Positions 15,913-64,000 of a DNA stretch of 64,000 nucleotides are shown here, piece after piece. The translations under genes were made by a program, and so were the position numbers. The notes beneath the pieces were generated by a model that worked only from the letters and a program-made list of their open reading frames with translations, had not been told where the DNA came from and ran no database searches. Each line of letters begins with the position of its first letter. Position 1 is the stretch's first letter. This stretch comes from Amoebophrya sp. A120 (Eukaryota > Protista > Dinoflagellata): NCBI GenBank assembly GCA_905178155.1, contig CAJINV010000010.1:423866-487865 (forward strand), read 5' to 3'.

Positions 15913-18825
15913 TCATGTTGTCGTACGTTCATCAGGTGGATAAATGGGGTCATTCGGATAGGCCAAGTCCACCGGGTTTTTTTCCGACGGCTCTTGGTTG
16001 TTCAAGTGTCGCACCGCATTCTTTCTTCCTTCCCAATCATGGTATTTTTTGTCATGTGCAACGCTGCTCGACGTTCCGACTCCTCCTCCGAACAAAAGAA
16101 TGTTGTCGTGCGTCCTGTAAATTTCTCATTCTCCCCCCACCTTGTCACTAACACTGAATTTCCAAGACGGGTTGCTAGTTACGCAGCCTGAAATTAGAAC
16201 ACCGTCCCGATCCCGGCGGGAGGGGGAGCTGTTTACGCAAATACCGAGTTTTGTCATCGGCTGCCCGTCTACATCAGGTTGTCTGTGTTCTGCGCTGCAG
16301 AGTACGTCCAAGTTGGATTTCTCGTAATTCTGCGCTTCGCGACGATCTTTTCTATTGGTATTTGTACAATTATTCCCTACCGCTCCGTAACCCTCCCATT
16401 TCACTTTCTTCAAATCCACATCCGTGATAATCGGCGGCGGTTTCTTCAATTCATCCACCTCACTTGTTGATACCGGTGGCGGATTTGTTCCTCCATTGTC
16501 TTCTCCATCACCCGCCGAACTTCCTCCCTTCTCCTGCTCCTTGACGTTGACGTTGTGCGTCTCTAGGACTGATCGGAGGATCTTCCGAAAATTATCGCCG
16601 TATCACGTAGTGCCATTATTGTATATCGTTCGTTGGAATTGTATGATGTCGCAAAGCTGTGAGTTGGTAGCTTTGACGATGCAAACGGAAGGTCTGATCG
16701 TTAAGTCGGGATTGATCCTACCAGAACGTGGATATGAACAGCATACACATGGAGTTCTTGGAGCATCGCTTTACTTACAGAGAGCGTACTTTGAAAGAAA
16801 ACTGCGAAATACAACTGCTGATGGCAGTATCTTTCCACTTCCCTCACAACTCATTGCTTTGTTCCTGTGGCATACATTAACAACTGCTCTTCGAAAATCT
16901 CCTTCTTCGACAGCTCCAACTGCTCTGACTCTTTCTCCTTATTTCCCTTGTAACCGTAAACAAACGCGTCGGAGGAGCACCTACAACCTTCATCCCGCAT
17001 ATCACCTCGCGACGAACCCCAGACACACCGCCCCAACTTCAATCCCGCCGTGATGCAAAGGGTTCTCGGTACTTTCCCACTTATTCTATTTTCCTCGGCT
17101 TCTTCATGCTCTGTTTCGTGCTCGGCTATCCATTTCTTAATCAACTCCGACTTCGCCTCCTGTCTTATTTTCTGTTGGTCTTCAAATGATTCCGTCCTTC
17201 TTTGCCAAAACGATGGCTGAATCCGATCGTCGTCGTCGTCAATATGAGGTGGGTGAATAGATTTGCGTGCCGTCTCTTCGAAGCACCCTCTCCATCCTTT
17301 ACCGCTTGGTCCCAACACTTCTTTTGCGTCACATAGCGGACCTATTCCGCCGAAAAGAGTTTTGTCGTCGACGTTTGGTTCCGCGGGCGCGGGTTTTGTT
17401 CTACTTTTTCGGCGACCCGCAGGCGCAGACCCAAGCCGAAAGCAAGTTTATTGAGATGCAACTTGTGTCCTCCAGTCCGTCCCAAGCAATTTCTGTCCTA
17501 TCTATACAGCAAGAATGCGGCCAAGTGGATTTGGCAACACAGATTTTGAAATGCGCTTCCTATTTCAATTTCCTAAAGCACGCTGTAAAACGTCAGGAAC
17601 AACGTAGATCAAAATCACAAAACGCACCCCTCTTAGAGGCACTGCGGTAGATGAAGTGGATCGAATGTAGCAATTTTGCTTCGAGCGTACTGACACAGAC
17701 ATAATTTTCATCTCGATAACGTCGGACTCCGTTTCTTCCCGTGTACGCCACGTGGTGCGGTGGCTGCGCGGTGTTGTGGACTCCTCCAACACGTGGTCTG
17801 CTCTGGCAGATGATCGGAGGTTGCGCGAGTTGCTTTGACGGGAAATGGTACTGGCGTATTGGTGGTACTGTGGTCGGCCGTCGGGATGAAAGAGGTGGAA
17901 GAGGACGATGTTGTAGGCATTTGCAATATCGTAGCAAAACGATGACTCAAGAAATGGCTATGTATGGTTTATCACTGCATGCGTGAAGAATGGCCACACA
18001 TCATTGCTCCATCAACTCGACTTCATTGCTAGTGTCATTTGTAGTCTGTCATGTCTCTACGTCACACCATCCTGGCCTCGGCAGGCAGCTCAAAATTTGC
18101 TTCTTTGAAGATTGTTCATGCTCGTCTACTTCTACTAGCTGCGAGAATGCATAGCTTGACTTGACTCAACTACACATTGCAGCGATATTAATTGCTGTCC
18201 ATACCTGTCGTGGTCCTGGTCGTCCACCTCCGTGGAGAGAATCCGACGCTCCAAACTGTTCACGGAAAGAAGAAGAAGAACTGGAGGAAATGCTGCGTGA
18301 CTCCACTCGACTTTTCTCGGCGTGGACTCGTGGACGGTTTCTCCGAACAAGATGCGGGTTGGAAGTGGTCAAAAAACTCGTCATTGCTCGTGGAGATGAT
18401 GATGTCCTCGTGTGCAGAAGACCACTTGTTCGTCCACCAACCGCAGAAGTTGTGAATGATGAACTACCTCGGTTGGGGTTGCAGCCACCAAAGAAACTGC
18501 TACTACTGCTTCCTCCCCCGGATGTTCTTCCTGCTCCAAGGAACGTCGACGCGGCGGAATCAATAGCCCTGGTCGTTGTCCCTTTCGCGATTTGGTGATG
18601 AACTCCGACTGGTGCAAGCGGGCCACTGGACGTAGTATTTGTCCCGTTTATCGGGTTCTCGAAAAACGAAGTTGCCGCGGCTTTGTTGTTGTACAGAGTC
18701 GTGTGTTGCAAATCCTGGTGCTCCTGCTCCAGACTGTTGCGGCAGCCGCCGAGTGCGGATCCATCCGCCAGCAGAGCTCCTGCCAGGCCCGGCATGATGG
18801 TTTTCGTCGTTGATAAGCAGGACAA
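15913..18825 (-). pseudogene. Decayed hypothetical gene, N-terminal part paralogous to 21158-22510
   Basis: MPGLAGALLAD...HQDLQHTTLYNNK..TSFFE..AASTFLGAGRTSGGGS aligns with MPGAAGAGLLAD...HPDLYTTLHDKN..TSFFH..AAAAFLGGGRISAGGS. Downstream frames carry several in-frame stops (e.g. VGGE*EIYRT at 16126) and frameshifts. Confidence 0.5.
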
Positions 18826-19979: not shown

Positions 19980-20210
19980 TTCATATCATTATCATACATT
20001 CGTGCCAGATAATTTCAGTGGCGAGACTATACAACATCAGCGCACCAACTCCTCATCCAACCACGGCTTTTGACCGTATTCTCCGGCCCGACGAAAGATG
20101 CCATCGAGAAATTGGAAACTGGAGAAGAGAGGTCGAAATCAGGCAACGTGGTCCGCACCATTGGCACGCAGTACTAGGTGTTACTTCGACGAGAACTACT
20201 CATCATCGCG
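19980..20210. repeat. Diverged direct repeat, copy 2 of 15340-15580
   Basis: Same shared blocks as copy 1. Confidence 0.85.
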
Positions 20211-23647: not shown

Positions 23648-26600
23648 TCACTTCCCCGCCTGCACCACCGGAGTAAAAACTCCTTGCGTTGTCAAAAAAA
23701 TTCCGATTCCCGAGACCAAACCAAACGCGACCAATATCGCGCCACGGATCTCGTAATCGTTGCCGGAGATATCCAGTCGAAAGAAGTTCTTTTCGCTTTG
23801 AAGTTCGTAGATTCGTGGTCCACCAAGACGTCTCCTATAAATGGGGATAGGCTACTTGTTATGCACGACAACAAAATGCAAATCGACGTCCAGGAAAAGC
23901 GCTACAAAAACTCACTGATTCCACTTGATATCAATTCTCACAAGTCAGCTTCATTCCGATCAGGCCGGGGACGAGAAAGCAGACCAGCGGCACGGCGGTG
24001 AAGCCCAAGATGGAGAGGGGAACGGAGAAATCCCGCATCCGCCACGCAGCGAGGAGTATGGGAAGGGAATTTCGAGTAAAGACAACAGCTTATTTGTTTG
24101 CTCCGTGCAAAGAGGTTCTTTCTCATCATGCGCGCAGCACTGCTTCTTCAAAAATCAAGACTGCATGATCTAGGATGTTTGTGTATCAATCACACCATCG
24201 TGATCGCAGGAAGACTGCTGCTCTTTGACTCGAAAGATATTTTTCAAAAAGATAGGGCCCACGACTGTGTTCACGAAAAGCATTTGAAAAAATCTTGGCG
24301 GCGATCCTGACGCAGGAGCGGCTGCTGTGTTTACCGTTTTTACTCGCCCGGCTAATGCCCCACTGGTAGTTGTCCAGCTAGTACTTTCCGACGCCTTCAT
24401 TGTGTCGGTGTTCGCTAGATTCCCGTCGTTAACACGATTGGATTTGCTGATGTCGCCATCTTCCTTCGACCTCGTTTCATCAGGAGAGAGCAGCAAGGGC
24501 ACTTGCAACGTTCTTGCCCTACTTGTACTTGCTTCTTGTCCTCTGTTCTCGAAGTCGATGATAGCAGTGTCGGGTCCTGGAGATGTGAAACTGAGGTAGC
24601 TTGTTTGCTGTTTTGGTTTAGCTTGCACTGCCCCATCCTGCTGAAGTAATGACGCTGACGGTGACGGACCTGAGGTAGCATCGCCCGTCTCCGGAGTACT
24701 CAGGTCGCTCTTGCGAAAAAACAGCGACTCCAGGACGTCTCGTAATGGAAGCACGAGCAGCGGGTAGCGAAGCAGATTACTGACGGCGACGCAGAAGATA
24801 CTGATCGATATGCCGTACTGGAGATAGCTCTTTTATGGTGAGGAAAAGGTCAAGTGTGGTCTGTATGTGAATTCTTTACCAAGACATCTTCTGATGCCCT
24901 TCTTCCAAAGTATTGCAAGCATAGCATGCAGCGAGCCTGCAATCAACTAAAAAAACCTAACATGATTCTGCTTGGCATCAAGGCAGCACATCACCCCCCT
25001 TTGATCCTTTTCATCTGCATACTGCAATCCCCCACTGCACTGCTAGATCCGGGTGATCCGCATTTTTCTCAACGGACCTGGAATCCAGCGTTGCGGTGTT
25101 CTGCTGAAAGGCGGTTGCGCTGTAAGCGTTAAACCCGACACCGATCGAAGCCGCACCAGAGCCCTTGAAGTCTGTATTGCGGGGAAACAAGAAAACACAG
25201 TAAAAAATCGTATATGGTTTTTCATCCTGTCATGCAACAGGCCATTGCTCGTCTGAAGATGATCATGTGTGTCATGCACTGACATTCACTTGCGCCATCT
25301 TGTGTGGCATGACAAGTTCAGCAGGTGAAAGTAAAGGTGTTTCTTTGTGCGCTCTGATAGTGAAACAGTTGCTGCGACAGCAGAATATCCGTTTCCATGC
25401 CGTTCTGGCCGCAAATCGCGTACCCCAGAACTCCGAACAAGGCGTGCAGCGTCCCGACGGTCAGCATGGAATAGTTGACCACATTTGCCATCGTCCAGGA
25501 TGCAGCTGCACTTGACGCACTCGACGCTCCGCATGACAAACTTCGGTTTCCCCTTGATGTCCCCGTAGTTCCACCTTTCGCCGTTACCAGCTCGCTGCGA
25601 ATCTGCAACACGTTGAAGTGACAGCAAAACGCGGTTAGAACCGGTGGTAAGGCTTGGAAGAAAGCGCCGAGCGTGGGCTGAATGGGGAGGAGACTTACGT
25701 CTTTCGCGACCGAACCAGTCAACAGGCGGATCACGAAGAACAGGAAGACCTGGCGGGAGATTTTTTTCACTTTTGCAACTCCTGTGCTTCGTATATTTAT
25801 TCCCATCGTCTTCGCAATACAGCTTTAGAAATGAGCTTGTTTTACATGATCTAACATAAAAGACTGTAATGAATCTACAGTACACATCCCGTCCCCAAGT
25901 TCGCCACCCCGGAAAAGACCTTCAGTGCGTCCAACCGACTCTGGCAGGTCGCGGGAAACACGCAAACGAGACTGAGCAGAATCAACCACCCCTGAAAATC
26001 CTCACCAAAGCCGAAGAGCTGGCAGATGTTGCTCGCGTAGATGATCAGCAACGCGGACGCGGCGCAGAGGAGGAGCCAAACCAAAGCGGTTTTGACGATG
26101 AGGGAGAGGAGACGGCCTTGGGTAGATGGGAAGAAATGGACACACAACTGCTCGATGGAGGGGGCGGCGGGCAAGGACGACGCAGGTGGAGGTGGTGATG
26201 AAGATGAAGAACCAATGTGATCGGAAGATGGCGGTACCGGTAGTTTCTCATACTGCTTCTTTTCGTTTCCACTTGCATTTGAAAAAGTTCTCGCTGCGTT
26301 TCTTTCCATCACGCTTGCGGCTTCACACAAAATTGAAGTATGGAGGGAAGATGGAGGACAAAATTGTGTTGCTCCTACACCTACTCGCAGGATCATGCTC
26401 TTGCTCGTTTTATATCGTGTCATTTGTACAAAGCAATGCAGCACTTCAACTTCTTCATAGATCTGCCCTACACTGCACATGCCAAGAAAACCCAAGGTCA
26501 ACTTTACGTCCTTCTCCCCAGTGTTTCCACGCCATAGAATAAACTCCAATTTGAAAAAATCGTGACCACCAGGCACAGAAAACACCCGCCGAAAAAGCCC

Positions 26601-26878: not shown

Positions 26879-26976
26879 TTTGTTTTAAAATGTGAAAACG
26901 CAATGAATGACTAGGTTGGCAGTACAAGAAAAGAAACGTGAAGAGAAGTCTTTGTGTGGTTACTTACTTAACAGCA

Positions 26977-27382
26977 CAGAATCAGAATCAGAAAGTTTGG
27001 CTTGGCTTGGCTGCGGGGCGGCGTTCCAGAACTTTAAGAGTGCAGCTGGAGCTATTCATGAGCTATAACTTGACCACGCATACTAAATTCTAGTAGAGGC
27101 GGCTAACAACGAACTTGTCCTCCCCCCACGTGATCATACAAACCCCGGCCTGAAATTCATGCTTACTGGGTGGGGCTGGGAAAATAGGCCATGAACCCGA
27201 CGGACAAGAACGCCGAAAGTCTTATACTTGGCCAACGAATCAGAATCAGAATCAGAAAATTTTGGCTTGGCTTGGCTGCGGGGCGGCGTTCCAGAACTTT
27301 AAGAGTGCAGCTGGAGCTATTCATGAGCTATAACTTGACCACGCATACTAAGTTCTAGTAGAGGCGGCTAACGACGAACTTG
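26977..27382. repeat. Near-identical ~142-bp direct duplication (26977-27118 and 27241-27382)
   Basis: CAGAATCAGAATCAGAAA...GGCTTGGCTTGGCTGCGGGGCGGCG...CTAGTAGAGGCGGCTAAC.ACGAACTTGT occurs twice with a 122-bp spacer. Confidence 0.95.
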
Positions 27383-42901: not shown

Positions 42902-45900
42902 TCATTTCCCCGGCGACAAAGACGACGCTGCAGCGGAAGAAGACGCAGCACCCCCTTCCTCCCCCAATGAAATGCAAATATGTCTGGGTCTGGAAGAGTG
43001 TGATGCTGTTTGTGCATGACACAGAAGGTCTAGCATGCAAGTCCTAGCAACACAGGTTTTGAGTAGGTTACGTTAGGCGATGCCTAAGTAATCCGCATGA
43101 CAAAGTTCCCTCTTTTGGTAGCAAGAAATGAGCAACTTTTGCGGTCCATGGATGACAGATTTTTTTCTGGTCTCAAATACGCATGAGAAATTTACATGTT
43201 TCCAGACCCAGACATTTTTGCAATCCATACCCCCGCCACCGTTCCAACATCAGGGCACGACGTGTTCTGTCGCACCTTCCCCGGTCCGGTGGAGGCATCG
43301 GAACTTTTCTCGTCGCTGCTGTTAGAAAAAGATTTTTCGCTGCTTGCGCAAGACGTATTGTTGCTGGTGCTGGAAGACGTTCTGCCGTGGTTGCCCGCAC
43401 GCTGATGCTGCTGGTCCTGTTGCTGCTGCCACGAGGAACGCTGCCGCGAGTGCGTGGCGTTCTGAAGGTTGTTTGACGAGGTCAAAAAAAATACACATCT
43501 TCATGATTTGTCATGCATTGATGCAACCCCGAAATAAATCGCTACTGCATGAGCATGCGCATGCTTGTCAACGTGCATTACAAACTCCTTTTACCTCAGC
43601 CCTGACGCCGCAGTAGTGAATCTGTTTTTTCGGGTCGCGTTCTATCCTGTGCAAAAGTATCGTACTCGTAGTAATCGCAGCCATGCATTACAAATTTCTC
43701 TCTGAAGTTAAATCCGCATTACAAATTTTATTTCTCATGCTGTGGAAATTTGTCATGCGATTTATTTTATACTAGTGAGATGCTTTTGCATTTCATACGT
43801 TCGATGGTCTTGCCAATCGAGATGTCGTCCACGTTGTCAATTCCGTCCTCCTCGATCCATTTCCGCACGTCGAGCTCGATCTTCTGGCACTTCTGTTCCA
43901 ATTGGTAAGCATCCTGTCCCGACCGGCTGTAGTTCGTTAAATGCGTTTTGTAGTGCACTTTCGCGAAATCCAGAAGGGCCTGGAAAAGCAGAAACCGGAA
44001 CTGGAAGTTCGTGGAACCTGGAGTCGGTAGTTTTGGGTGTGGATTTATTTTCTGGTTTGCGAATAATTGTTTTTTTCTAGGTATTGTACATGATGCACAG
44101 CCCATGCATATCAAAACCCTGTGAACAAGTTGGAGGAAAGAGCTTTCGGAACGAAAACGAATGCTAATAAAAAATTACTTAAATACGCTATACCGATCTT
44201 GTAAGCAAATCTTCTGTTGGCCAGCAATTCATGCGCATCGCTCACGTATCCGCAAAAGCACATCAGGCGGGCGGTATGTTGGGAAAATCTTGACCTTGAG
44301 GCTAGAACGTGACAGAATTAAGTATACAAGATTTGCATTCACCGCTTCTTGCTTGAAGGGATGGCACCACTTGTAAGCCTGTACGACCAAATGCATATTA
44401 ATCCTCTCTTTAGGCCGCCATGGACGCACCACCCGTTCTTATTCTTGTACTACTTCTAAATAAGCGAATCACAATCCATTTGACTTGTCCAGCATCCCCA
44501 ACATCAACTTTTCCCTCGATACATCAGCGCCGCGTCGCTGTGCGCGTTGTAGTATGCAATGCAAAGTATAAGTATCGCACTACTAGTATAAATTGCATTA
44601 CAAATTTCCCCAGCATTACAAGTTGAATTTGTAATGCTGATTTGCTTTGAAAAAGAGATTTGTATATGCATCACTGCAATTAGTACGAGCGCGATACTTT
44701 TGCAGTGCATATGTAGTACCCCGTCTGCGGACTGGTGAACGTGTAGAACTGCCGCAAAAACACCGGGTAGTAGTGCTCCAGGACCGACTGCTGAAATGGC
44801 AGATTGTTGGGGCGGTACCGCTCGAATGCGGAACACATCATGCACCAGATCCGGCTGTTTGACGGGATGTTGTGCCGCTCCTGGTAGTCCACGATCTGCC
44901 ACAGCATCTCCCAGCACTGTTCCTTCGAGATGTCCGGGTTGATTTTGTGGAAGTATTTGTTAATGAGAAAACTAGTCACGTGCAAAATCCCATTCGTGTC
45001 CAACTTCCGGTGCGATTGCATTTTGTTTTTCTTCTGGTAAACGGAAATTTGTTCCTGGATCACCTCGTGCAATTGCGAGAAGGATCCCGGGCCCGGGTTC
45101 AAAATTTGCTGGTACCGCTGCAACCCCTTCAGGAAGTTGGGCTGTTTGCTGTTCATGTTAATGCTGTTGATGTTGTGATTCGAGGACCCGGCGCCATTTA
45201 TTTTTCCTTGCGGATTGGAACAACTTGTGGACGAAGATCCTGCGATAATATTGCCCCCGCTGGCATGCTGACAACTGTGGCTCAGTTTCTGCAGCGCGAG
45301 GTTTTTGTTACTACCCGATGTTGAACTTCGCTGCTGCAGCGCCGTCGTGTGCTGCTGGTGTTGTTCCAAAATTTTAGAAGCGGAAATGTTCGACCGGTTG
45401 CTGATGCTCAACGCAGTTTGCGGCGACATGTTGTAGTAGAGCTCTTGTTGGTGCAGTCCGCTTGCTATGGAACTGTCAGGATTGAAATTGACAAAGTTGA
45501 AATGATTTGTCATGCATGAAATGGATGCCAGTTCGTTGGAACCCAGTTTCTAAGTGGCGCATGACAAATTTCGGTGGTCCTTAAATCCAGTTTGTCATGC
45601 TGTTTAGGCAAAGAAGAGGGATTTTCTCATGCTACTTTAGCAGCTCGAGCTCTAACCCCAAACAGGCTTACAATCGGCCTCACTTGCCTGCTCTGCAACA
45701 CACGCACCTCGCGTCATGCATTTTCTGCATTGCAATTTGTTTCAACTTTGACGATTTCAAACCTGACGCTTCCATACTTGCCGCGGCCGACACATTCGTA
45801 ATGGGCGACGGACAGGGCGACGGGTGGAAAGATCCAGCTCCTTGGGTCGTCGAACAAGCGTTGTAACTGTAGGTCAGATTCCCCGGGAAGTCGTAGTTGA

Positions 45901-50758: not shown

Positions 50759-52465
50759 TCACTCTCCAAAAATGAGATCGAGACACTCTCTACTGGACAA
50801 AACGGGAAAGTCGGGCGAGTGCGCCGTCCGCATCAATTTCTCCGTGCTTAGCAAAATGCTGCCTCGGCTTCCTTTTTGCTGATTCGCGGCTGTACTTGTT
50901 GTGTTATCCCGTATCTCTGGGTTGTAATTTTCCAGTTTTGTCTTCAACCGCTGAACCAGATCCTTTTCGTAATCGACAGCCCCCGGATTGACGAAGTTCA
51001 AATTCCCACACGTTTTCGTTTTCACCAACTGCGGAATCGTTGGGCATAAGTTGTTATCAAGTGAAAAAGCGTCTGGGCCTGAAAGGTTACCAGGTTTGTC
51101 ATGCATATTTTGCATGACTCAGGATGTCTGTAATGCATGATCTAGCATCACATATTTTTAGAGGCCTTCCTGATGCCTGTCCCGCATGACAAATGCCCTC
51201 CCCGCGTAGCACAAACTGGGCTCCTCTTGTTGCTGGTCACGCAATACAGATTTTTTTAGAGTCCAAAATTAGCATGACAAGTTCCAACCTTCCAGACCCA
51301 GACATATTTGCGATGCATAGTTCTCCAGAAAGGTGATGCTGTTCATTGCTTTGTCCACCCGCGTGAAATTCCGTAGCTTATCACATGCAAAAGTGTCTGG
51401 GTCTGGAAGGTGGTAACTTGTGATGCTGTCTTTGGATTCCAAAAAAACTCTGTATTGCATGACTAGCAAAAGGAGTCCATTTTGTGCTACACGGGGAGGG
51501 CATTTCTCATGCGGAATAAGCATCAGGAAGCGTTCTAAAAATCTGGGATGCTAGGGCATGCATTACAGGCGTCATTGGTCATGCAAAATATGCATGACAA
51601 ACCTGGCAATCTTCCAGACCCAGACATTTTTTCACTTGATACAGCTTCCCCAGCAGCGACTGCTTGTTCTCGAATGTCCTGTATGAATTGCAAAAGCATC
51701 CCATCGTACTCGTATATATGCATTACAAATTTCCTCAGCGTGAGAAATAAAATTTGTAATGCTAATTTACCTTAAGAAAAAGATTTGTGATGCATGATTG
51801 GAATACGAGTACGATACTTTTGCACAGGATATCCTGTCCTTCATCGAGATCGGGAATTGCACGCGCAGATTCAGCACGTTCGGGTAGTAGCTGAGCAGAT
51901 CCTCTAAGACGCAGCGCGCTTTGCGGTAGAAATGGACCGTGGGCATGGTTGACCCGTCTTTACAGTCTATGTTGTCGATGTAGTCGGCTCCTTTTATTGT
52001 GTCCTTCTCCTCGTCATAGTAGTCTTGGTTCACGATCCTTGCATCCTCTGGTTCCATCGGCGGGTAAACCATGCAGCTGCCGACGAAGGTGCAGTGGATA
52101 GGGTTTTGATTGGTCGCGTTTTCTGCTTTGATATTTTCACCCTCTACAACTTCTTCGCCCAAGACGCGACACGCCCGCGCGACGTTCAGCTGGCCGAGAA
52201 TGTTGGCCTCGATCGTTTCACAAGGATGGTCCAAGCACCAGTCGATATTTGGCTGGCCGCGCACCCCGGCCGAATTAATCACGCCGTAGCGGATGGGTTG
52301 GCTCTGCTTGATAAAGTTCAGCACCCCCTCTGCGTTTTCCAGGCGGAGCGACTTGGGGTTGGTGACAACTTTGAGGTTTTGTTTCTCCAACGCTTCCAGA
52401 ATGTGCTGTCCGATAAAACCGGAGGCGCCGAAAAGAACGAAATCGCAACCGGGGGTGGAGGACAT
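50759..52465 (-). CDS. NDP-4-keto-6-deoxyglucose 3,5-epimerase/4-reductase (NRS/ER, RmlD-like; rhamnose synthesis), 3 introners
   Basis: GASGFIG, NSAGVRGQPNIDWCLDHPCETIEANILGQL, FYRKAR, NVLNLRVQFPIS. The spliced continuation KQSLLGKLRNFTRVDKAMNSITFLENLCPTI...GNLNFVNPG matches the plant NRS/ER pattern (FITKI..Y.KVV..PNSMTILDELLP...GIYNFTNPG, recalled). Confidence 0.9.
51055..51319. mobile_element. Introner family A
   Basis: TSD gttgt/gttct; removal gives FLEN-LCPT. Confidence 0.92.
51379..51641. mobile_element. Introner family A (opposite orientation to 51055-51319)
   Basis: TSD tagct/cagct; removal gives LGKL-RNFT. Confidence 0.92.
51682..51831. mobile_element. Introner family B
   Basis: TSD tcctg/tcctg; removal gives MKDR-TFENK. 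Confidence 0.93.
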
Positions 52466-53578
52466 TTTTTTTTTTGACGAAGGTCGAGCTTCCGGGTGGC
52501 GGGCCCGCCGGGGGGTTCGGCTTCTTATGTAAATTTTCTTGAAGTTGTAACAAGCGAAACGTGCAAGCGCTCTTTCAAATTCAAAACGGGCTCATGAGAT
52601 AGAATCGCGATGGGGCGAGCAATCTTCGGGCATCCGTGGCAATAATTCGCTTTGATGGTAGTTGGAATCACACGACTTCTGAGCACGCACCGAAAGTGAC
52701 GACAAGAACGCCGGCAGAAAGATGGAACACTTCTTCAAGCCCTTTGCTTGTTGTATCTTCTCCGGGCTGCTTTGCAGCCTCCAAACGCATGTACTCATGT
52801 ACAGGACAAATTTGGTATTATACAGCTAATGTAGAAATGTGTTGATTGCAGTCGTTGACATGTTCTTGCGTTCCAGCTCCAGACGAATCGGTCGATTTAG
52901 TCGCCCACCTGCTAAGTGGGATTGGGAATAATAGAGACTATAGCTTAAGCACGCTACCTATCACATTGCTAGGAAGTACATGTATAAGCTAAAGCGAAAA
53001 AAGATCATGACGCAAGAAAATAAAAAGGGCTAAATTGACTGTGAAAAGAGTACTGGGGCAAATTTCTAAAAAACCTCGTTGCCGAACTAGCGCCATGCCG
53101 CAAGTGCAAAAATCACATATAATATGCCACGCTGATGCAAACTTTATGCATGCTGAAATCAGCGCAGTTTCGGTTTTAATTGTTCTTTTATGGTGAGCTT
53201 TATGCTGTCGAGTTCAAGTTTTTAATTTGGGATCATACATCATGTCTAGCTCAACACGTCAACATCTCGACTTTCTCAGAAGGTCAAAAGCGAAGAAATG
53301 TAGTTGAGCTGTTGCTTTCTAAAATCATGTAACGACAGTGAACCTAAATGTGTGCCTGCCTGTGCCTGCATGTATGCAAAAATAAATAAAAACCGTTGCA
53401 AATAAAGACTTAGACTGCCCGCCCACAGCGACATCGTTGCGGATGTACAAGTACATGGCACCCACCTGCCTATTTGCATTTTCCTTGAGTAGACCAGGAA
53501 CACGAAATATGTGCTCAGTATGCATAGTGCGGCTCCAAAGATCGACAAGACTCTACTCTCCTCGTCCAATGTCAAAAT

Positions 53579-56500
53579 TTACGGCTGCACGGTGATCACC
53601 TGATTGTGGTTGACGAATTCTTCTCCCGAAATGTGGGGAAAAAGCTTGTGCAGCTGTTGCCGGAAGACTGCGTCCTGCGCCGCCATTGGGCCGAGCAGCA
53701 CTTGCATGTGTTGCTGTTTATCCGCTGGGATGGGATCGTAGTGGTCGTGCACGGTGATGGCGTGGGGACTGTCGTGATATTGTAAAAAGGCCTGATTCCG
53801 AACCTCATGATCCCGGTGTAGCCACAGCAAATCCCGCAGCGCGACGGCGAAAAACGTGCGCTGGAAGGCCTTCAGAAGTGGCAACTGGCTCTGCTGGTCG
53901 TGCGGTCCAATCTCCACTCCGGTGGGCCACTGATGAGAAAAGTCTCCCGTCTTCAGCTGCATCAGCAGAATTTTCTTCTCCATGGGGCAGATCTGCCCGA
54001 GGGGGGTCTCGTTGAAATTTTGAACCACTGTTGGAATACTCAAATCGTCGAGCAAATGAACAAACTGCAGGCCCAATGAATCGTACAGCACTGGCCCCGC
54101 ACTGTTTGATAAGAGGCTGGGAAGGTCGAGCAGGATGATTTCCCGGAACATTGGGTTTTTGTGAAAAGCATTTTCGGTGAACCGGGCGCCAAGTCGGCCG
54201 GATCGGTAGTAATTTCGTTCTCCCATTTGCCACAGTCGCTCCACTTTCCTGGACATGCCGCTCGCCTCCAGCATGTAAGAGCTGTAGAAGGCCGCGACCT
54301 TCATATCGTAAGGAAAAATCCCCCCTCCCCATATCGATAAGGCACACCTCAGAAAATTTGCCATGCTGATTTGTGACCACAAATCGCATCTGTAATGCAA
54401 GAAAGCAGAGCCACAGGCGCCGCCCCATTCTGCAGGCGGTTTGTAATGCTGTTGGGCCTACGGCATAGACGTTCCTCATGCTAAGTGCCTAGGCCAAAAC
54501 CTCTCGACTCCGGCACGATATGGGCCTGCAGTCCTCTCCTGCAAGACAAATCTGATTTGTGTACGCAAATCCAGCATCAGAAATTTTGTTTCGATGTGGG
54601 GAGGGTGGATTTTTCCTTCTGATACTTCAAGGGGGACAGCACCACCCCACCGAGATTGTCGCCAATCTGCGGTCCCGGGCGGAAGCCTCGGTAGTGCATG
54701 GAAAGCTGGGAGGCCCGTTGCATATGCATTGCAAAAGTATCGCACTCGTAGTAATCGCAGTCATGCATTACAAATCTCCATCCGAAGACAAAACAGCATG
54801 CCAAAAAATTCCATTTGTTATGCTGAGCCAATTTGTAATGCGATTACTACTAGTACGATTACGTTTGCAATGCATACTGCAAATGATGCAGCATATTCGC
54901 GATGGTGACGTGAAAGCTTGTGTCGTGGTTCACCATCGGGCCAACACGGCCAACGCCGCGGCCCACGCCGGTGATATCGAATGCAAAAATGTCTGGGTCT
55001 GGAAGAATGCAAGATTTGTCATGCATATTTCTCATGACCCATGATGCCTGTAATGCATGACGTAGCATCGCAGACTTTTAGAGGGCTACTTTGTGATACC
55101 TCTACCGCATGAGAAATGCCCTATCCGTGTAGCACAAATTGTACCCCTCTTGCTGGTCCTGCAATACAAATTTTTTATAGAATCCACAGACAGCATCACA
55201 AGTTGTGACCTTCCAGACCCAGACATTTTTGCAGTTGATAGGTGAAGTGCGCCCGCATGGCACCCTCGGTTACATTATAGCAGGACTCGAACCGGTTTTC
55301 ATCTAACAGCAGAAACCCTATCAAATGCAAAAATGTCTGGGTCTGGTGAAGGTTACCAGGTTTGTCATGCATATTTTCCATGACCCAGGATTGTTTGTGA
55401 TGTATGCTCTACCATCACAGATTTTCAGAACCCTTCCTGATGCCTATCCCACATGACAAATGCCCTCCGCGCGTAGCACAAAGTGGGCTCCTCTTTTTGG
55501 TCATGCAATACAGATTTTTTTAGAGTCCAAAGTTAGCAGCACAAGTTCCAACCTTCCAGACCCAGACATATTTGCAATGCATAAACCCGATGAACTGGCC
55601 GAGCAAGACCGTCTTCTCCACATCCCAAGCGTCCTCGTTGAAATCCGCGTTCCGCCGCAACAGTTCCTGCTCGGTTTCGATTGGAAGCCGGGGGTGCCGC
55701 TGGTTTTGCTGCGCGATCTGGCGTTCCACCATTTGTTCTCCTCCGATCAGTGCGATGTTCGCTATCCCATGTAAAAACGTCCCCACCCCAGATTTGTCAT
55801 GCAAATCTGCATGCCTACCATGTTTCTCATGCGCAACCCCAAGAGCAGCACTTTCTCATGCTCACCGGGACTTTGTCATGCTCTAGCCAGGATGAGGAGC
55901 TAGGTTTGCGATGCGGATAATTCATCACTACTAGCCAACCACGAGTTGTACACTAGAGACCCAGACTTGTCATGCGCAGCAGCAAAACCATGCTGATTTG
56001 TGTTGCTAAGTTCCCATCTTGACTCGTCTGGGGTGGTGACGTTTCTCCTCTGGATATTCGCGGCAAACTCATGATCGGCTTGGACGAATTCCATGGACTG
56101 CATCGTTTCGAACAATTTGTCCAGAACCCAGACCATGCTTTATCCTGTGCAAAAGCATCGCACTCGTAGTAATTGCAAACATGCATTACAAATCTTTTTC
56201 TCAAGCTAAATCCGCATTACAAACTTTATTTCTCATGCTGAGGAAATTTGTATATGCAATTATACGAATACGATACTTTTGCAATGCATATGTTTTGCAC
56301 CTTTCCGAAACTTCTCTTGACCAATTCGTTCCACGCGGTCACATGCGCCGCGCGGTCGGGATTCATCACATTCGGATTCACAGGATCCAGGTGGTGAACC
56401 GCGTGGATCATGTGATCTGCGGGCAAGTAGCCCGCCAGCGACCGCCACTGGATCTGCTGGTGCATCGGCATGAGGTCCCCACTTACCGTGTTTTCGTGCC

Positions 56501-58367
56501 ACCAAAGATCATTCGTCTCCGCGTTCAGCTTCAAATGCTCCATGGTAGCGTCGCAAACCCGCCCAAGAAACTTCGCGGCTTGCTGCAACACCCAGCGGAC
56601 GATCAACAACTCGATTTCTGCGGTCAAAGCGGGCACCAGGTTCTGCTTTGCCAATGCCGCTTCCAAATTTTTACCATCTTGATTCATCAGATCCTTGGAT
56701 AAGTTTGCGTTGACCAAACTCCGGATGTAGTGCTTCAACTCCACCCGGACCGGACTTCCGGCGCGCAGGGCGAAGAGCAGGAGTTCGAGGAAATTTTTCA
56801 GCATCGGATACGCGTATTTCTCCCGCTTTTCGAAAATCCAAGCCTGAAAGGCGGAGACTTGCAGTTCGTGGTTCGCAAGCTCCATTTCTTCTTGCTCCTC
56901 GCGCCGGAGCTGCTGATCCGCGCCCACACCCGCGAGAAAGTCCTCGAACGCCGGGACCTGGTCCGGACCCGCGTGTGTTTCCAACTCCTCGGCTTCGTAA
57001 AGGGAGAGGGCGACGGACAGGGAATCTTGGATGTCGGGGGTTTCTTCGACGATTTTGTCCAATTGCTGAAGGTCGTCGTCTAAGTACTCGGTTACCTCCA
57101 CATCCTGCTCTAAAGGCACCGCATTTACGCTCTGCGTTAACCGGCTGCTCAACTTTACCGCGTCCTCCAAAACCGCAACTTTGGAAGGGTGGAGGTGCGG
57201 GATCAGTTGCGCTTGCCCGTTCAATTTCAGGAAATCCGTGTGGAAAAAGTCAAAAGAGTCCCCGGAAAACGCGCTGGACGATTCTAACGTGTCTTTCTTG
57301 TTGTGCACTCGGTCGACTAAGTTTTCCAGGATATTTTTAGTCGTTGTTTCTTTGTTCTCCAACACGTTTTTGACCACCGTTTCCAGAAATTTCTCCACCG
57401 CCGTCTGCTTCTTGACCAGTGTGAGCTCAATTTTTCCCGTTTTCCCGTAGAATGAGTCTGGGGTGAACAACTGTGGGTAAAGTTGTTTCCATTCCGTGAT
57501 CAACGCACTGACATGTTGTCCTGGCCCGAGTCCGGACGCCGCAGAAAGTCTCACCAAGGTCCCACTCAACAAGAACTCGGATTCCTGGGCAAAGCGCAGG
57601 GGGTTTTCCTTCCCGGAAAGACGCTGGGAATTCAGGTTGTTGAAGTAGAAAAACATCTCTTGCACCGTGTGGATCTTGACGAAATTTTTATCAGTGTCGG
57701 TGATTTTTTTGTTCGTGATCTTGCTGCCCTTTGTTCCGCGTCGCGGCCCACCCCGACGACCGTCACGTCTGTCATACCAGAATGAAGCTCCAGGTCTTGA
57801 TGTTTCGCGGTTATTTTCTTGGTCCAGCGGATCCGGGCTGACAACGAAAGTGGCCAGTTCCCCGCCAAGAGTACGGATGACCAGCTTGTCTTTTTGATGC
57901 TGATCCTGCTTTTGTAGTACAGGATGATCACCCGGTTCTTGCGCAATAGACATTGTTTTGCTGCTCGTGTAAATAGCGTCCGCGTTCTCATCACCCGGAA
58001 CAACTGCAACCTCGGCGGCCCGCCGTCTACTGCTGCTGGTGGAGCGTGGCCGCGACGTCGAGGCCTTCCCCTTCCGCCGGTTTCTTTTCCTGGCCGCCGG
58101 CGAGGAAAGGGGGGAAGCAGCGGCAGAAGATGCCCCTCCGACCTGAACAAGTTCTTGGTGTTCTTGTCCCGCCTTCGCCTGCGGCGGACTCTTCGGCGCT
58201 AACGGGGAGCGCTTTGCCGGAGTGGGCGTAACGGATCTGCTGGCCGCGCCAGGACGAACACCACGGCCCGCTTGCAACGCAGCGACATTCTGGTAAATAT
58301 CAAACTCGTTGCGAACACAGAGCACGGATAGCACGACGGCCTTCACGTAGGAACAACGGGAAATCAT
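53579..58367 (-). CDS. Large hypothetical protein with signal-like N-terminus (paralogue 1), 6 introners
   Basis: A ~690-codon first exon, then spliced KVQNMVWVLD, LLGQFIGFLLLD, NMLHHLQ, RGFR..GGVVLSPLKVAAF, GRLG, LLSN...LY..GL; all collinear with the paralogue at 60513-64000. Confidence 0.85.
54304..54624. mobile_element. Introner family D
   Basis: TSD cttca/cttca; removal gives SPLK-VAAF (paralogue SPLKLAAF). Confidence 0.93.
54723..54876. mobile_element. Introner family B
   Basis: TSD ttgca/ctgca; frame restored. Confidence 0.9.
54975..55240. mobile_element. Introner family A
   Basis: TSD ggtga/ggtga; frame restored. Confidence 0.93.
55319..55583. mobile_element. Introner family A
   Basis: TSD aaccc/aaccc; removal gives GQFIG-FLLLD (paralogue GQFVGFLLLD). 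Confidence 0.94.
55763..56056. mobile_element. Introner family C
   Basis: TSD ttcgc/ttcgc; frame restored. Confidence 0.92.
56141..56290. mobile_element. Introner family B
   Basis: TSD tgctt/tgttt; removal gives VQN-MVWVLD (paralogue IQNFVWVLD). Confidence 0.93.
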
Positions 58368-59349
58368 TTTCGATTGTTTTTTGATTTTTGCACAACACTG
58401 TAGAAGTTATTGCGCTTTTATTTTACGCAGTTTGTGATGATGCAAAGACGAGAACTGTGATGCAATTGTAAGGCAGCACCGCTTTATTCGCTTTCTGTGG
58501 TACTTAAAAATCAATGATTTAGTTGTAGTTTTGAACAGAAGTAGTTCTAGACGCTGATTAGTCGAGTATCGCTAGAGCAGTAATTGCAAATCTTGTGCAA
58601 GTAGAGATAGCAGTTTTCTTTGAATTAGAAGTGGTAAGTTTTTAATTGGTCTTCGTACGTACCAAGAAATGGATAATTGTGCAAACGGTACAGCTACAAT
58701 GCGTCTACGTCTTTAACAGGCTCTAATACGACGTCTTTTGCGGGCAATTCTTCAACTTTTACTTGTTGCAAGGCACTGGAGGCATCTGTTGGCTGTGGGA
58801 GGATTGAAGTCGCAGGATGGAAAGCTGGATCGATTTTTGTTTTCGGGACAAAAGAAGGAATAGTTCGGAATCGAAATCCAAATCTTGTCCAAATGGATAC
58901 CGACACAATAAAATATGTCAGGCAAGAGATCGGTGCATTCTAGACTTTTCTATGCCATTACAATATCGAGATCAAGATCATTGAGGAGCTGCATCAATTC
59001 ACTTCTGGATCGAGAAAATATTGAGGATCCTTCTGAGCGTACATTTATTTCCTGGAGGGACCGATGACCTGCAGCATGATGTGACTTCTGATCCTCGCTT
59101 TAGTTTTGACTCTTCGTAATTTCAGCTCCGTCTTCCTGTAAACCGATTTTCAACATTTTTTGGGCAAGAACCTTCCCCTCTTCATCTTCTTCGCATAGAA
59201 CTGAATTGTGATCTGCTACTCCGACTGAGTCCACAGATGCATATCGCAGGATTCAGAGTTTATTGCGATCCTGCTGTGAGTGACGACAGACACTGCGGCC
59301 ATAATTAAAATTATCGTGGTATGATGATCCTTAATTTTCCTTTCTTTTC

Positions 59350-59394
59350 GTAACGACAGATCTCATTCTCTGAGAGAATGAGATCTGTCGTTAC
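59350..59394. repeat. Perfect 45-bp palindrome (22-bp arms, 1-nt centre)
   Basis: GTAACGACAGATCTCATTCTCT G AGAGAATGAGATCTGTCGTTAC. Confidence 0.95.
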
Positions 59395-60512
59395 CTCTCG
59401 CCTTTCCAATACGACTCGAACACGGAACAGCTGTCAATGATCACCCGAGCTGTGGTCAATGATCACCCGATGGTAGAAAGAAAAAGTAGCGCGTTACTTC
59501 TTCACTATCTTGGTTCTTGTCAAGCAGTGCTAAAGGCCTGTAACTTTCTCTTGTGTGGAAGTTCTAATTCAACAGCGATCGAACGAAGAGCGATATATTT
59601 TTTTTCTATAGCTTATAGATAGGTGCGAGCAGAGCTTCCATGGAATTTATTTCGATAGCATCGGTCCGAAAGCAGTCGCCGTGATCCAACTGTATTGAAA
59701 CAAGGTCTAGTACTAGCTGCATGTTGCCTGGTATGAACATCGTCTGTTTTTAGATTCTATTGAGGTGGTGGTCTACTTCTACCAAATAAGTATCGCAAGG
59801 CAGTCGTGCTGTAATGGTTTTTCTCGTAGCTGGCTAATCCTAATTGAATTGTACAAATGGTATTTATTGACGTAGGCTAAGAGGTCAAATTTATGAAAAA
59901 ATTACGTGAAAAAATGCACAAAAATAAGAATCCTGTATCAAGAATCAATCATGCCTCTTTGTGCATAATTTCAATCTCCGTATACAACTCGAGCATATGA
60001 TGCATGTGCATCCCTAAAGAAAGCGAATACAAATAACAGTATAGAACATCAGGTGGCTTATTCTCTGTAGTAAAAACAAAAAGTCAAAGGAAGCTGTTGA
60101 GGGCTTTCTTCCTAAAAAAAAAAAGGAGATATGCAACTAGTACTTGAATATTAGACTGCGAGCGTCTAGTAGTATCCCTATCCGTTTTAATTCTGCACAA
60201 TATTCTTTCACTGCTCAAATCAAATGACTTGTTTATCAGCGGAACTGCAAGGCGGGCAAGAAAAAGTGATTATCATTCAAAACTCGGCGTGGTTCTTCTC
60301 GAGGAGATATTCACATACACATTACGTCAAGCTATATAGTTCGAAGTTCTTTACCAGCAATAGGCCGCCTCCTCAAAAGTTTATGTTCTCTCTTAAATGG
60401 TCTTCTAACACTGTATGCTAATCCTGCTACTCCGATCTAGCAATATTGTGCCAGCTTCTTCGCGATACGTGCGCAGCGTCGCTGCCTCACCAGTGTAAAA
60501 TACATTTATCAA

Positions 60513-63500
60513 TCACAAGGGGCGAAAGACCAGTCCGCCGTCCGCGTCCGCAACGCCGAGCCTGGCCACCTGTCTGTAAAATGCAGCGTCGCTTTCATAC
60601 ACCCTTCCGAGTATATTCACGAACTCCCGGCGGTTTTTGCTCGAAATACGATAAGGTAAGTCGGGAATGTTGCGCTCCCAGTTCCCGTTCGGCCCGTCAT
60701 CCGTCCAATTGAACAAAGGTTGCCGCCCCTCTTCCTCTTTCCGGTCTTCCAAATCTTGAATGACCAACCAGAAATCCTGCAGCAAAGTCGTCCACACCGT
60801 TTCCTTGAACCTTTTCACCAAACCGAGCGAATAATTGAATTGCAACTGTTCGAAACGGTGCCTAATATTCGGAGGTAATCGCTGCCACGTTGGGTTGACC
60901 CGCGTCGGGTCGCTTGCGAGCTGCTCGAATAGCGAAAGGTGCAGACCGCTTGGTTGGTACAGGCCGAATATACCCTCGTTGGATAAAAGCGGATTTCTTC
61001 CCAACATCCAGGCTTCTCGGACCGCCGGGCTGATGTGCCGCATCGTCATCTCAGAGGAGGGGTCGGCGGAGTATAACCGGTTCTGCCCCAGTATGAATTG
61101 CAAAAGTATCGCACTCGTATAAATGCATTACAAATTTCCTCAGCATGAGGAATGAAATTTGTAATGCGGATTTACCTTAAAAAGAAGATTTGTAATGCAT
61201 GATTGCAATACGAGTACGATACTTTTGCACAGGATACCCAGTCGTCCGTCCGGATCGTTGATCGCCCGCCAGATCTCGTCCGCGCCCGGCGGCCGCCGGT
61301 CTTCAAAGTAGCTTCTCCGCTCCGCGCCGCGCTGCAGTTGCTCGATTTTCGTCGACAACGCCGGCGTTTCAAGCTGAAACGTGGTCAAAAACGCGGCCAG
61401 CTTCAGGGGGGAAATCACGCGGCCGCCGTGCTGTCGGAACCCGCGGAAAGGGGAATCCCGGTGAATGCTGGTCTGTTTCAAGTGCTTGATCATTTTCACG
61501 ACCGCCACGTAAAGCGAATTCCCATACCCGGCTTTGTGGTTCCGGCCAGCATTCGGGTTGTGCGCGAAGGTTCGCGCCCGCTGGAGATTCTCCTCCAAAT
61601 TGTAACTTAACGACTCGAAGGAGGGATCTAGCAGCAGAAACCCGACAAACTGCCCGAGTAACGAAAGTGATTCCAATTTGCGCTCCTCCACTTTGAAATC
61701 AAGCTCCGCATCGAGAAACCGCCGCTCACTATTCGGATCCCGCAGCTGATCCTCGATATTGCGATGCGGGTCGCCGCCGTTTGGAATAAAGGGTAGTTGT
61801 AGCAAACCACCTTGTTGGTTTGCATTTGTTCTCGTCGCGGCAGAGGATGAAGTACGGAAAAAGCCTGCAAAGTCGTCAAAGCCGTTCTTGCTTCCAATCC
61901 CAACGGCGTTCACGACGTAATCCAGCACCCAGACGAAGTTTTGAATCCGGGCAAAATCTTTCCGCGACAGCGGGTGGTCGAGCATGTACTTCACGTGAAT
62001 TTCACTTGTCCCCGGCAAGTAGTTCAAATCCCCGCGATGGTCCACTTTGGCCGACATCGTGTCGGCTACTACATTAGCGTTTAGTTCAGCGTTCGGACCA
62101 CCGGCCTGGCGCCGGAGTTGCAGCAAAATCGCCCGTTTGTCTTCCAACAGCTTCTCGACGTTCAGCTCGTGGTACTTCAGAGTTGTGTCCACAATTCGCT
62201 TGGTAAATTTCGCGACCTGCTGCAAAACCCAGCGGACCAGCAGCTGCTCCACCTCGGTAGTGATTCTGTCGACAAGGAATTTGTGCTGGAAGTTGTTCCA
62301 TTCCTCGATTCAGTGCTTGGAAGTTGTTTTTTTTCCTCCGCCGAGGGGGGTCTTCTTGGAAGCTCCTCTGACACGAAGGGGGCGCCGGGTAGAGGAAGTC
62401 CTGGTGGGCGGGTAGAAGCCACAACTGCTGGTTGCGAATACGAAGGTTGGAAACCCGCTGGCAAGGGTTGACGTTGGAAACCTGCTGGCAGTGCTTGACG
62501 TTGAAATCCCGCTGGCAAGGCTTGACGTTGGAATCCGGCTGGCAGCTGCGCTTCGTGAGCAGGTTGGAAACCTGCTGGCAAGGCTTGAGGCTGGTGATTG
62601 TGATGCTCGGCTGGGTTGTACGGCGGAACCGGAGGAAGTTGGTTCTCATGCTGTAGATAGTACCCAGCAACCTGTCCTGGCAGGTGTTGCGGCGGATCTT
62701 CATTCAGTGGTGCTCCTGGTCGCCGAGCTGCATCGGGAATCAACAGTGCAGCGCGCGGCGGTGCCGGTGGTGCAGGAGGTTGATGACCGTTGTTCATTTG
62801 TTGCTGCTGATTCTGATTCTGCTCCGCGGCCCACGCTTCCCGCCATCGCCGGATGGTTTCCTCCCGGGTTCCGGGGTATCCGGGGAAAAAGTCGATCTGG
62901 GCTTCCATGTCGACGGGCTGAAACCTGCGGAAAGAGGCCATCGGGTTGTCCAGACCCAGGGCAGATACGGACGTCCGAGAAGGTAGTTCTTGATCCACTC
63001 CTTCATGGCGGGGTCCACCACTGATCGGGAGAGGCAATAAAGCTGTACTAGCCGAACCAGAAGAACCACGAGGTCCACGACCACCTGCGGGTCTGTTTAT
63101 TCCACGTGCAGATGAACTACTTGCGGATGAAAAAGAAGAGGAGGGTCCTAAAGTCGCAGCTCGAAGTTTTTGTCGCTCTTCCTGCTCTTTCTGTTTTTTC
63201 TCCTCCTGCTCCTGTTCCGCTTTAAAAATTTTTTCCTCTTCAATTTTCTCCAGTTCGTCTTCGACCAACTTCCGCAAATACGTCTTGAACCCCTTCCGCA
63301 CCCCGTTTGAAGAACACAACAGCTGCAAAACCTGGTCCAAATACACCCGCAACTCCTCATACGCGTGCTCGTCCCGCACCTTCTGTACGCGGTAGTTGTA
63401 GGCCTGCGCCGGGTCGTCCCAATCGGTCTATCAAATGCAAAAGTGTCTGGGTCTGGAAGAGTCGTGCTGTTTTTGCATGACACAGAAGGTCTGGCATGGA

Positions 63501-64000
63501 AGCTCTAGCATCACAGGTTTCGCAAAGCTTCCTTGATGCCGAATCCGCATGACAGGTGCCCCACTTTGGTGACAGAAAGTGGGCAGCTTTTGCTCCCTAT
63601 GCATGAGAGATTTTTCTGCGTTCTGAAATGCGCATCACAGGTTTGTATTCTTCCAGACCCAGACATATTTGCATTTGATAAAGTCGCCGGGCCGTCCATC
63701 GGGTCGCCGTCGTTGTAGTTATGGATTGCAAATATGTCTGGGTCGGGAAGGGTGCAAGGTTTGTCATGCAGATTCGGTATGATCCATGACGCCTGTAATC
63801 CATGATCTAGCATCACAGATTTTTAGAGAGCTTCCTAATGCCTATCCCGCATGAGAAATGCCCTCTGCGCGTAACACAAACTGGACTCCTGTTGCTGGTC
63901 ATGCAATGCAGATTTTTTGGGAATCCAAAGACAGCATTACAAGTTCCAACCTTCCAGAATCAGACATATTTGCATTTCATACTAGTCCTCTTGGAGCAAA
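60513..64000 (-). CDS. Paralogue 2 of 53579-58367, 5'-truncated by the window edge; 3 introners, a Pro/Gln-rich insertion and an unexplained frame change near 62310
   Basis: EHAYEELRVYLD..VRKGFKTYLRKLV versus KYAYPMLKNFLE..VRVELKHYIRSLV; EVEQLLVRWVLQQVAKF versus EIELLIVRWVLQQAAKF. Confidence 0.75.
61092..61236. mobile_element. Introner family B
   Basis: TSD cccag/cccag; removal gives DGRLG-QNRLY. Confidence 0.93.
62444..62590 (-). repeat. Coding tandem repeat, five LPAGFQ-containing units (mostly 27 nt)
   Basis: QALPAGFQP...QLPAGFQRQALPAGFQRQALPAGFQRQPLPAGFQP. Confidence 0.9.
63429..63680. mobile_element. Introner family A
   Basis: TSD cggtc/aagtc (3 of 5); removal gives GPAT-DWDDP. Confidence 0.88.
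63720..63981. mobile_element. Introner family A
   Basis: TSD gtagt/ctagt; removal gives LQED-YNDGD. Confidence 0.9.

Follow-up and report, generated by a model that had tools for sequence, protein, structure and literature searches.

In the marine parasite Amoebophrya sp. A120, a single fixed offset fits every readable junction between an introner and its host transcript: the excised intron begins one base before the inserted element and ends four bases after it. The window analysed here is a 64-kb stretch of A120 DNA, with 100 % identity to two proteins on record for Amoebophrya sp. A120 (P0001 and P0121), and its elements are the introners already published for this organism (Farhat et al. 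2021, PMC7789003), with the same inverted repeats (TAT, seven nucleotides, AAA), the same lack of GT-AG ends and the same removal from mRNA. The published account describes direct repeats of 3–5 nt over the borders, where we find target site duplications (TSDs) of 5 bp. The legend of its Fig. 3 terms the sites variable and the border unknown, and it reports no clear dinucleotide signature, whereas the junctions read here share one register and keep T at +2, A at +3 and ATA at −7 to −5; its Table S4 already leans toward NT donors. No fixed register for Amoebophrya introners was found in the literature searched by title and start of abstract, nor in the parts of PMC7789003, PMC11282704, PMC12130899 and PMC12005148 that were covered; the figures of PMC7789003 (Figs 3 and S19–S23 may show more) and subscription papers (Roy et al. 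2023, Henriet et al. 2019) lay outside that scope. Non-canonical introns make up about two thirds of A120 introns, and their route of removal was left open by the authors (PMC7789003). A fixed register turns the absence of a signature into an exact signal, namely a free +1, T+2, A+3, ATA at −7 to −5 and four free last bases. Such a signal would allow tens of thousands of intron borders to be re-annotated, names the bases to be addressed by lariat mapping or mutagenesis, and explains how these elements can spread through genes at low cost.

Thirty-two young introners were counted in the window, 23 with perfect and nine with imperfect 5-bp TSDs. A profile of 68 terminal inverted repeat (TIR) ends begins with TAT, followed by seven variable nucleotides and AAA. 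In a second assembly, where elements were called blind to the TSD, the duplication was perfect in 230 of 306, and introner families are common to 158 loci with identities of up to 93 %. The imperfect young copies are those at 2909, 34774, 37031, 51055, 51379, 54723, 56141, 63429 and 63720. Five are mismatched at TSD position 5, three of them (51379, 54723, 63720) with G in the upstream copy, as the earlier note had observed; at 63429 the G of the position-5 mismatch sits in the downstream copy. We define the register as the number of TSD bases kept from the upstream copy before the cut, 4/1 denoting an intron that reaches 1 nt beyond the TIR on its 5' side and 4 nt beyond it on its 3' side. 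Read in this way, the donors of the 32 young elements are GT 11, AT 8, CT 7 and TT 6. A previous tally of 34 elements is nearly recovered, since adding 42966–43229 brings GT to 12, but its 34th element, an eighth CT, was not found. The copy at 17449 was left out of the 32 and classed as old, and a candidate at 23485–24239 was rejected as a chance pair because the RNA has other introns at the same place. A scan for the TIR motif in viral contigs found none.

The register itself was read from transcripts. Thirty-three joints were read among those listed; 31 joints of lower support (19 + 12) lie outside that reading, so minor alternative cuts may exist. TAT/TAC...ATA elements account for 25 of the 33, and at all 25 the element plus 5 nt is excised. 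The cut position is constrained at 16 of these and uninformative at nine, and at eight the sole position allowed is register 4. The intersection of the allowed registers over the 25 joints is {4}, that is, a cut after TSD base 4, giving N-TA[T/C]...ATA-NNNN (hyphens mark the element ends). The one register that the earlier note had proposed from imperfect TSDs is thus borne out by RNA. All but one of the 25 joints lack GT-AG ends, and every one of the 24 non-GT-AG joints among the 33 carries the motif at a place compatible with register 4; by hand arithmetic from intron base frequencies, the chance of finding it there is about 1 in 1200 per joint. A further joint, 51773->61187, was discarded as a jump between repeat copies. 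A stop-codon test in the second assembly did not discriminate, the count being 0 stops in 43 whichever register was assumed.

It is the old introns, their TSDs decayed, that narrow the register so closely; the earlier note had not used them, and the two readable young copies allow registers 0–4 and 3–6. Like all features given below as coordinate ranges, the old introns lie on the minus strand. Eight of them admit register 4 alone: 12185..12335 (joint 12184->12336; TT...CG, reading T-TAC...ATA-CCCG), 12374..12580 (12373->12581; TT...TA, its end pairing lost), 12611..12769 (12610->12770; CT...AA), 14094..14258 (14093->14259; TT...CC), 23766..23931 (AT...TC, from the contig-piece table), 24830..25022 (24829->25023), 26335..26537 (26334->26538; CT...TC) and 44271..44522 (44270->44523; GT...GC, spanned by the published protein P0121). 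Cut in the 4/1 register, the TIR intron at 24830..25022 also has GT-AG ends. Six more are compatible with it: RNA joints at 12968..13131 (registers 3 or 4), 13387..13571 (3–5, weak end pairing) and 24053..24255 (2–4, end pairing lost), 16638..16875 from the contig-piece table (1–4, weak end pairing), and 17445..17719 and 17923..18188 (4 or 5 each), both inferred from piece ends together with a 203-nt gap in record 5 of contig X4. Loose hairpin scans, a motif-end test and an ab initio gene finder were tried for old introns in the second assembly and were too noisy: the motif-end test missed old introns even within the window, and the gene finder recovered 12 of the 33 known joints. Counts for old introns therefore rest on these 14, all from the window and five of them from one gene, and many of the joints that admit a single register were read in assembled contigs carrying the flag 'between: not known'.

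Young copies are best seen in a host gene at 53579..58406 that carries six introners and yields an open frame of 1115 codons when spliced according to the RNA joints. In four of the six the TSD is perfect and the register unreadable, and the RNA skips the element plus 5 nt: 54304–54624 (intron 54300..54625), 54975–55240 (54971..55241), 55319–55583 (55315..55584) and 55763–56056 (55759..56057). The other two have imperfect TSDs. At 54723–54876 (intron 54719..54877, GT...CA, TSD TGCAG/TGCAA) the joint 54718->54878 occurs in contigs X1 and X4 and in 331 raw X9 reads; the base at position 5 is that of the downstream copy, which allows registers 0–4. At 56141–56290 (intron 56137..56291, AT...GC) the copies read AAACA/AAGCA on the sense strand, as described before, and the joint 56134->56290, seen in X1, X4 and 384 X9 reads, takes position 3 from the upstream copy and allows registers 3–6. 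The asparagine that had been expected at this junction is present, the RNA-spliced gene reading QNMVWVLD, the same as the intronless paralogue near 61900. Two of the nine imperfect-TSD junctions thus had RNA cover, and both allow register 4.

Further young introners of this part of the window were defined from the DNA, the joints listed including none at these five or at 51055: 51379..51641 (imperfect TSD AGCTG/AGCTA), 51682..51831 and 61092..61236 (both perfect, removal of the latter giving a 548-codon frame), 63429..63680 (GACTT/GACCG) and 63720..63981 (ACTAG/ACTAC on the sense strand). At the last, keeping the whole upstream copy creates an in-frame TAG, as had been pointed out, and the window holds just six codons of the upstream exon. 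This stop speaks against the idea that in young long-stem copies the cut varies in register within the TSD, invisibly where the TSD is perfect, and becomes fixed in old copies only. Such variable cutting would agree with the Fig. 3 legend of PMC7789003, and nine of the 25 joints are uninformative, with two young imperfect copies read. However, both of these include register 4 and jointly allow 3 or 4, register 5 is ruled out at 63720, and all 16 informative joints fit one offset, which is unexpected for a variable cutter; we regard this alternative as improbable.

Hairpins combined with direct repeats are the classic setting for template switching by reverse transcriptase. Introners combine the two, and the RNA origin of X1 and X4 is presumed. 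The joints might accordingly be artefacts of this kind, or reflect DNA alleles without the elements. Against this, the junction is free of any repeat at eight joints, ordinary GT-AG introns are skipped in the same contigs as well, and removal restores long frames. Moreover, X9, which covers one gene, is recorded RNA and supports its joints with 214–384 reads and 66–95 starts each; runs X10 and X11 yielded hardly any alignments. An artefactual origin is therefore very hard to credit.

As to the machinery, we lean, with guarded confidence, towards a relaxed U2/U6 spliceosome that no longer checks for G at the first position or AG at the last two. The U6 core would recognise U+2 and A+3 in the way it does in ordinary GTA donors, and the hairpin, strong in young copies, would bring both ends together in these. 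ATA would mark the 3' end, perhaps with an A of this triplet as branch point, and the 3' cut would be set at a fixed distance behind the triplet, not at AG. The ordinary GT-AG introns of the window (n = 10, eight from RNA joints and two from a published protein model) begin with GTA in every case, so T+2 and A+3 are common to both intron classes; GTAT, put forward earlier as a frequent ordinary start, is found in four of the ten. Since 24 of the 25 element joints lack GT-AG ends, introners are better said to work like U2-type spliceosomal introns than to be such introns. In yeast, U+2 pairs with A51 of U6, while G+1 and the branch A read the 3' AG (10.1101/212811), so a joint loss of G+1 and AG with U+2 kept is coherent. 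A120 is reported to have U2, U4, U5 and U6 with almost the full set of spliceosomal proteins, and to lack the minor snRNAs; U1 snRNA is given as undetected, yet U1-70K, U1A and U1C are listed (PMC7789003, Table S6). Canonical introns and the presence of U1 are described for AT5 and the Karlodinium-infecting strain (PMC12005148). An Rfam search of the 64-kb window gave no matches and hence no snRNA gene there. Counted against the spliceosome are the undetected U1 snRNA and changes to the terminal TAT or ATA in 15 of 216 young copies, at rates similar to those of inner TIR positions (A−5 in five, A−7 in three, T−6 in two; on the donor side T+2 in two, A+3 in one, T+4 in three), so either A of the ATA may be dispensable.

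A less likely account keeps the register and replaces the spliceosome by an endonuclease and a ligase. With the base of the TIR hairpin as reference point, these would cut at distances of 1 and 4 nt; the same kind of mechanism has been proposed for euglenid nonconventional introns, which retain pairing between +4..+6 and −8..−6 (PMC4770533). The terminal bases are free, U1 is undetected, and the complementarity of TAT and ATA also suits an explanation by pairing alone. In old introns the duplex between an intron's own ends averages −8.0 kcal/mol, versus −5.8 kcal/mol for crossed pairs. A long-stem young copy at 42966..43229, whose 3' ATA has become ATT (A−5 lost), is moreover absent together with 5 nt from the published protein P0121, a gene model. 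What old introns keep is nevertheless sequence beyond pairing: T+2, A+3 and ATA are present in 14 of 14, some with little hairpin left, and +4 is C in three of them without compensation in ATA, whereas euglenids keep complementarity instead. In several old introns the stem is gone, the end duplex of four reaching −1.8 to −3.9 kcal/mol, values that ordinary introns show as well, and T+2/A+3 matches the ordinary GTA donor. The proposal that the TIR supplies donor positions +2 to +4 accordingly holds for +2 and +3 (14/14 old, 10/10 ordinary) and is weaker at +4. Measurement of the 3' site from the hairpin base agrees with long-stem young copies with an altered ATA, one of them (42966) removed in the gene model, but not with the four old introns that stay in register with end pairing no better than that of ordinary introns.

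The earlier note had gone further and proposed a donor read by U1, at which first bases other than G are suboptimal and evolve toward GT. Its evidence was the upstream G in three of five position-5 mismatches. GT-AG TIR introns do exist (24830), direct and inverted repeats occur in 15 % of canonical A120 introns (PMC7789003), and fully canonical copies could escape the set of old introns. The drift claim failed testing, however: in the second assembly +1 is G in 60 of 194 perfect versus 15 of 54 imperfect copies, and in the old introns in four of 14 (p 1.0; T4 G4 C3 A3). The excess of G at position 5 is not above chance in that assembly (upstream only 3 versus downstream only 4), and mismatches are even across the five TSD positions (p 0.42), though with just 11 at position 5 the power is limited. 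We consider this model improbable.

The U12-type donor motif is RTATCCTT. A U12-like reading of the TIR was rejected: TATCCT showed no significant bias toward the 5' end (29 versus 19, p 0.19), +5 is G in eight of the 14 old introns and +1 is often a pyrimidine, and the minor snRNAs are absent according to PMC7789003.

Among known systems, euglenid nonconventional introns resemble the A120 introners in their MITE-like origin, a TIR hairpin near the ends, TSD-like repeats, free terminal dinucleotides and a 3' overhang longer than the 5' one (PMC4770533, PMC11282704). Their paired core, however, lies at +4..+6/−8..−6 (CAG/CTG) and not at +2..+4/−7..−5 (TAT/ATA), and they keep pairing over sequence and show R/Y edge preferences, unlike the mixed +1 of A120 old introns (PMC4770533). 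Spliceosomal introns of Giardia lamblia share a relaxed first base followed by TAT (VTATGTT) and a strict branch-to-3' spacing but retain AG and a long branch motif (PMC6679479). TIR introners of Micromonas/Aureococcus, Polarella and Fritillaria are likewise DNA transposons turned introns with one TSD copy removed; these make recognisable splice dinucleotides from TIR or TSD, whereas the end dinucleotides in A120 are unconstrained (PMC11282704, PMC12130899).

In Table S4 of PMC7789003, T stands at +2 in all nine leading donor classes of A120, and all nine leading classes of A25, whose inverted repeats start with TTA, begin with TT. T+2 therefore holds in both, and A+3 by inference. We tentatively suggest, as a possibility short of a likelihood, that A120 and A25 share a splice code N-TA...TA-NNNN, served by a spliceosome without the G+1:G−1 and branch-A:A−2 checks, with a branch A in the transposon end from which the spacing to the 3' cut is measured. 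Any TAT...ATA transposon with a 5-bp duplication would then function as an intron from the moment of insertion, whichever its orientation, and old copies would be tuned by a C-rich 4-nt tail, not by gain of GT-AG. In the old copies at hand, this 4-nt tail does seem to drift to C.

Two exons in the window are 100 % identical to proteins that bear the name Amoebophrya sp. A120, and all host genes lie on the minus strand. A scan recovered 34 TAT...ATA pairs with a 5-bp target duplication (TSD): 32 young copies, one older copy (17449) and one chance pair (23485), which was dropped. The repeats correspond to the introner elements already published for A120 (PMC7789003). The imperfect TSDs on which an earlier note had built its argument are present in the sequence: nine copies, five position-5 mismatches with upstream G in three, and the in-frame TAG at 63720. 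Its donor tally held for GT (12), AT (8) and TT (6), but only 7 CT donors were found, one of its CT elements not being recovered (33 elements including 42966).

From these TSDs it had been proposed that the introns probably start 1 nt before the terminal inverted repeat (TIR) and end 4 nt after it. Transcript joints were taken from 44001-64000 (15 of 34 joints listed) and 11900-27000 (15 of 27 listed). A joint between repeat copies was discarded as a repeat-to-repeat jump, two joints were added from the contig-piece table and two inferred from piece lengths, giving 33: 8 ordinary GT-AG introns without the motif and 25 elements. At all 25 element joints the element plus 5 nt is excised. Nine have perfect TSDs and are uninformative on register; 16 constrain it, and eight of these, all on the minus strand, place the cut after TSD base 4 and nowhere else, register 4 (12189, 12378, 12615, 14098, 23770, 24834, 26339 and 44275). 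These unambiguous cases are old introns with decayed TSDs, their end dinucleotides being TT-CG, TT-TA, CT-AA, TT-CC, AT-TC, CT-TC, GT-GC and GT-AG. This register is also the intersection over all 25 joints, which confirms the fixed 1/4 cut. RNA covers two of the nine imperfect-TSD junctions, both as predicted: 54723 permits registers 0-4, its downstream base being present in a 69-read loose-end consensus of the recorded RNA reads (X9), and 56141 permits registers 3-6. The X9 ambiguity column is larger at these sites (5 and 7), and contig values were used instead. That the contig sets X1 and X4 derive from RNA is a guess, yet ordinary introns are absent from both too. Splicing 11 consecutive joints yields an open frame of 230 codons, and the published protein P0121 agrees with the joints across its gene. 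The legend of Fig. 3 in PMC7789003 describes A120 introner splice sites as variable relative to the hairpin, with the border unknown; a fixed register was not found in the passages of open-access text consulted on Amoebophrya introners.

All 14 old introns share T+2, A+3, A-7, T-6 and A-5; position +4 holds T in 11 and C in 3, -8 is C in 11, and +1 is free (T4, G4, C3, A3). Ordinary donors read GTA in 10/10 and GTAT in 4/10. A strict end motif is spoken against by 15 of 216 young copies with altered TAT or ATA, the calling of these copies having relied on the inner TIR and a perfect TSD and ignored the end triplets. The element at 42966-43229 has ATT in place of ATA, yet is excised in the published gene model. 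The hairpin stem and the end motif therefore look partly redundant. The end duplex reaches only -1.8 to -3.9 kcal/mol in four of the 14 old introns, which lies inside the span of ordinary introns (-0.9 to -7.8).

It had further been suggested that donors drift toward GT. A metagenome-collection scan gave 158 loci (L001-L158) from a single related assembly in which these element families recur; they total 774 kb, or about 520 kb once redundancy is removed. There, calling that ignored the TSD gave 306 elements, 230 of them with a perfect 5-bp TSD, and a codon model oriented 256. The model placed 29/30 window elements correctly, but genes of the window had served as its training set. G stands at +1 in 60/194 elements with perfect, 15/54 with imperfect and 3/8 with diverged TSDs, and in 4/14 old window introns. 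TSD mismatches are spread evenly over positions (p 0.42), and position-5 G is upstream-only in 3 and downstream-only in 4, so the G excess on which the earlier note had let its drift claim depend is not seen. Drift toward GT is not supported in this comparison, which counts 11 position-5 events and from which fully canonicalised copies may have gone from view. The 4-nt tail after ATA (-4 to -1; for example 12185-12188 and 14094-14097, minus strand) does seem to shift toward C, a post hoc lead: C makes up 25/56 tail bases in the old introns vs 21 % in intron interiors, and is intron-only vs exon-only 22 vs 5 times (p 0.0015). The related assembly leans the same way, more weakly, with 23 vs 9 (p 0.02), or 16 vs 8 (p 0.15) for the elements on whose orientation two models concur. 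Nine of the 14 old introns carry C at -4, which creates CATAC, the complement of GTATG.

The elements are removed precisely, in one register, with free terminal bases and with TA and ATA kept. Removal is probably the work of a relaxed major spliceosome. In yeast, the P complex has U6 A51 paired with U+2, and the 3' AG is read by G+1 and the branch A (10.1101/212811); retention of U+2/A+3 while G+1 and AG are both lost fits a machine that has given up those two pairs and places its 3' cut at a set distance. Such a distance-set cut would resemble that of Giardia, placed by spacing from the branch point (PMC6679479). PMC7789003 reports that U1 snRNA went undetected in A120. Among the leading intron classes of its Table S4, T+2 occurs in 9/9 of A120 and TT in 9/9 of A25, a pattern consistent with a shared donor rule in A25, a strain whose IR starts with TTA. 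The main, less likely rival is an endonuclease that measures from the hairpin and acts with a ligase, a mechanism put forward for euglenid introns (PMC4770533).

In the 4/1 register, elements of L001-L158 fall in phase 0 in 119 of 222 cases (phase 1, 44; phase 2, 59), a surplus that could come from target preference, selection or frame-calling bias and is absent among the 21 RNA-confirmed window elements checked (8/8/5). In those elements of L001-L158 with one TATC and one TATG end, TATC is 5' in 73 vs 51 (p 0.06); CATA ends occur in 11/14 old introns. A predicted GT-AG intron at 2308-2450, with GTAT start and ATA-AAAG end as in 24830-25022, is possibly an element turned canonical. The sirtuin (PF02146) gene at 31497-33230 holds a single introner (32987), which P0001, a published A120 protein, spans. 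Genes 60513-62309 and 53579-58406 are paralogous with differing introner insertions; region 62265-62375 seems to disrupt the frame of the upstream copy, whose transcript depth was low. At 7590-8150 an array of short repeats, both direct and inverted (core GATAAGAAC, by eye), seems to belong to a larger mobile element; on either side of it lies a copy of one long ORF region, the two in opposite orientation (6021-7232 and 8628-10868). Inspection by eye also showed a sequence of about 150 nt repeated in direct orientation (26979-27120 / 27238-27385) and, at 59352-59391, a perfect palindrome of 40 nt.
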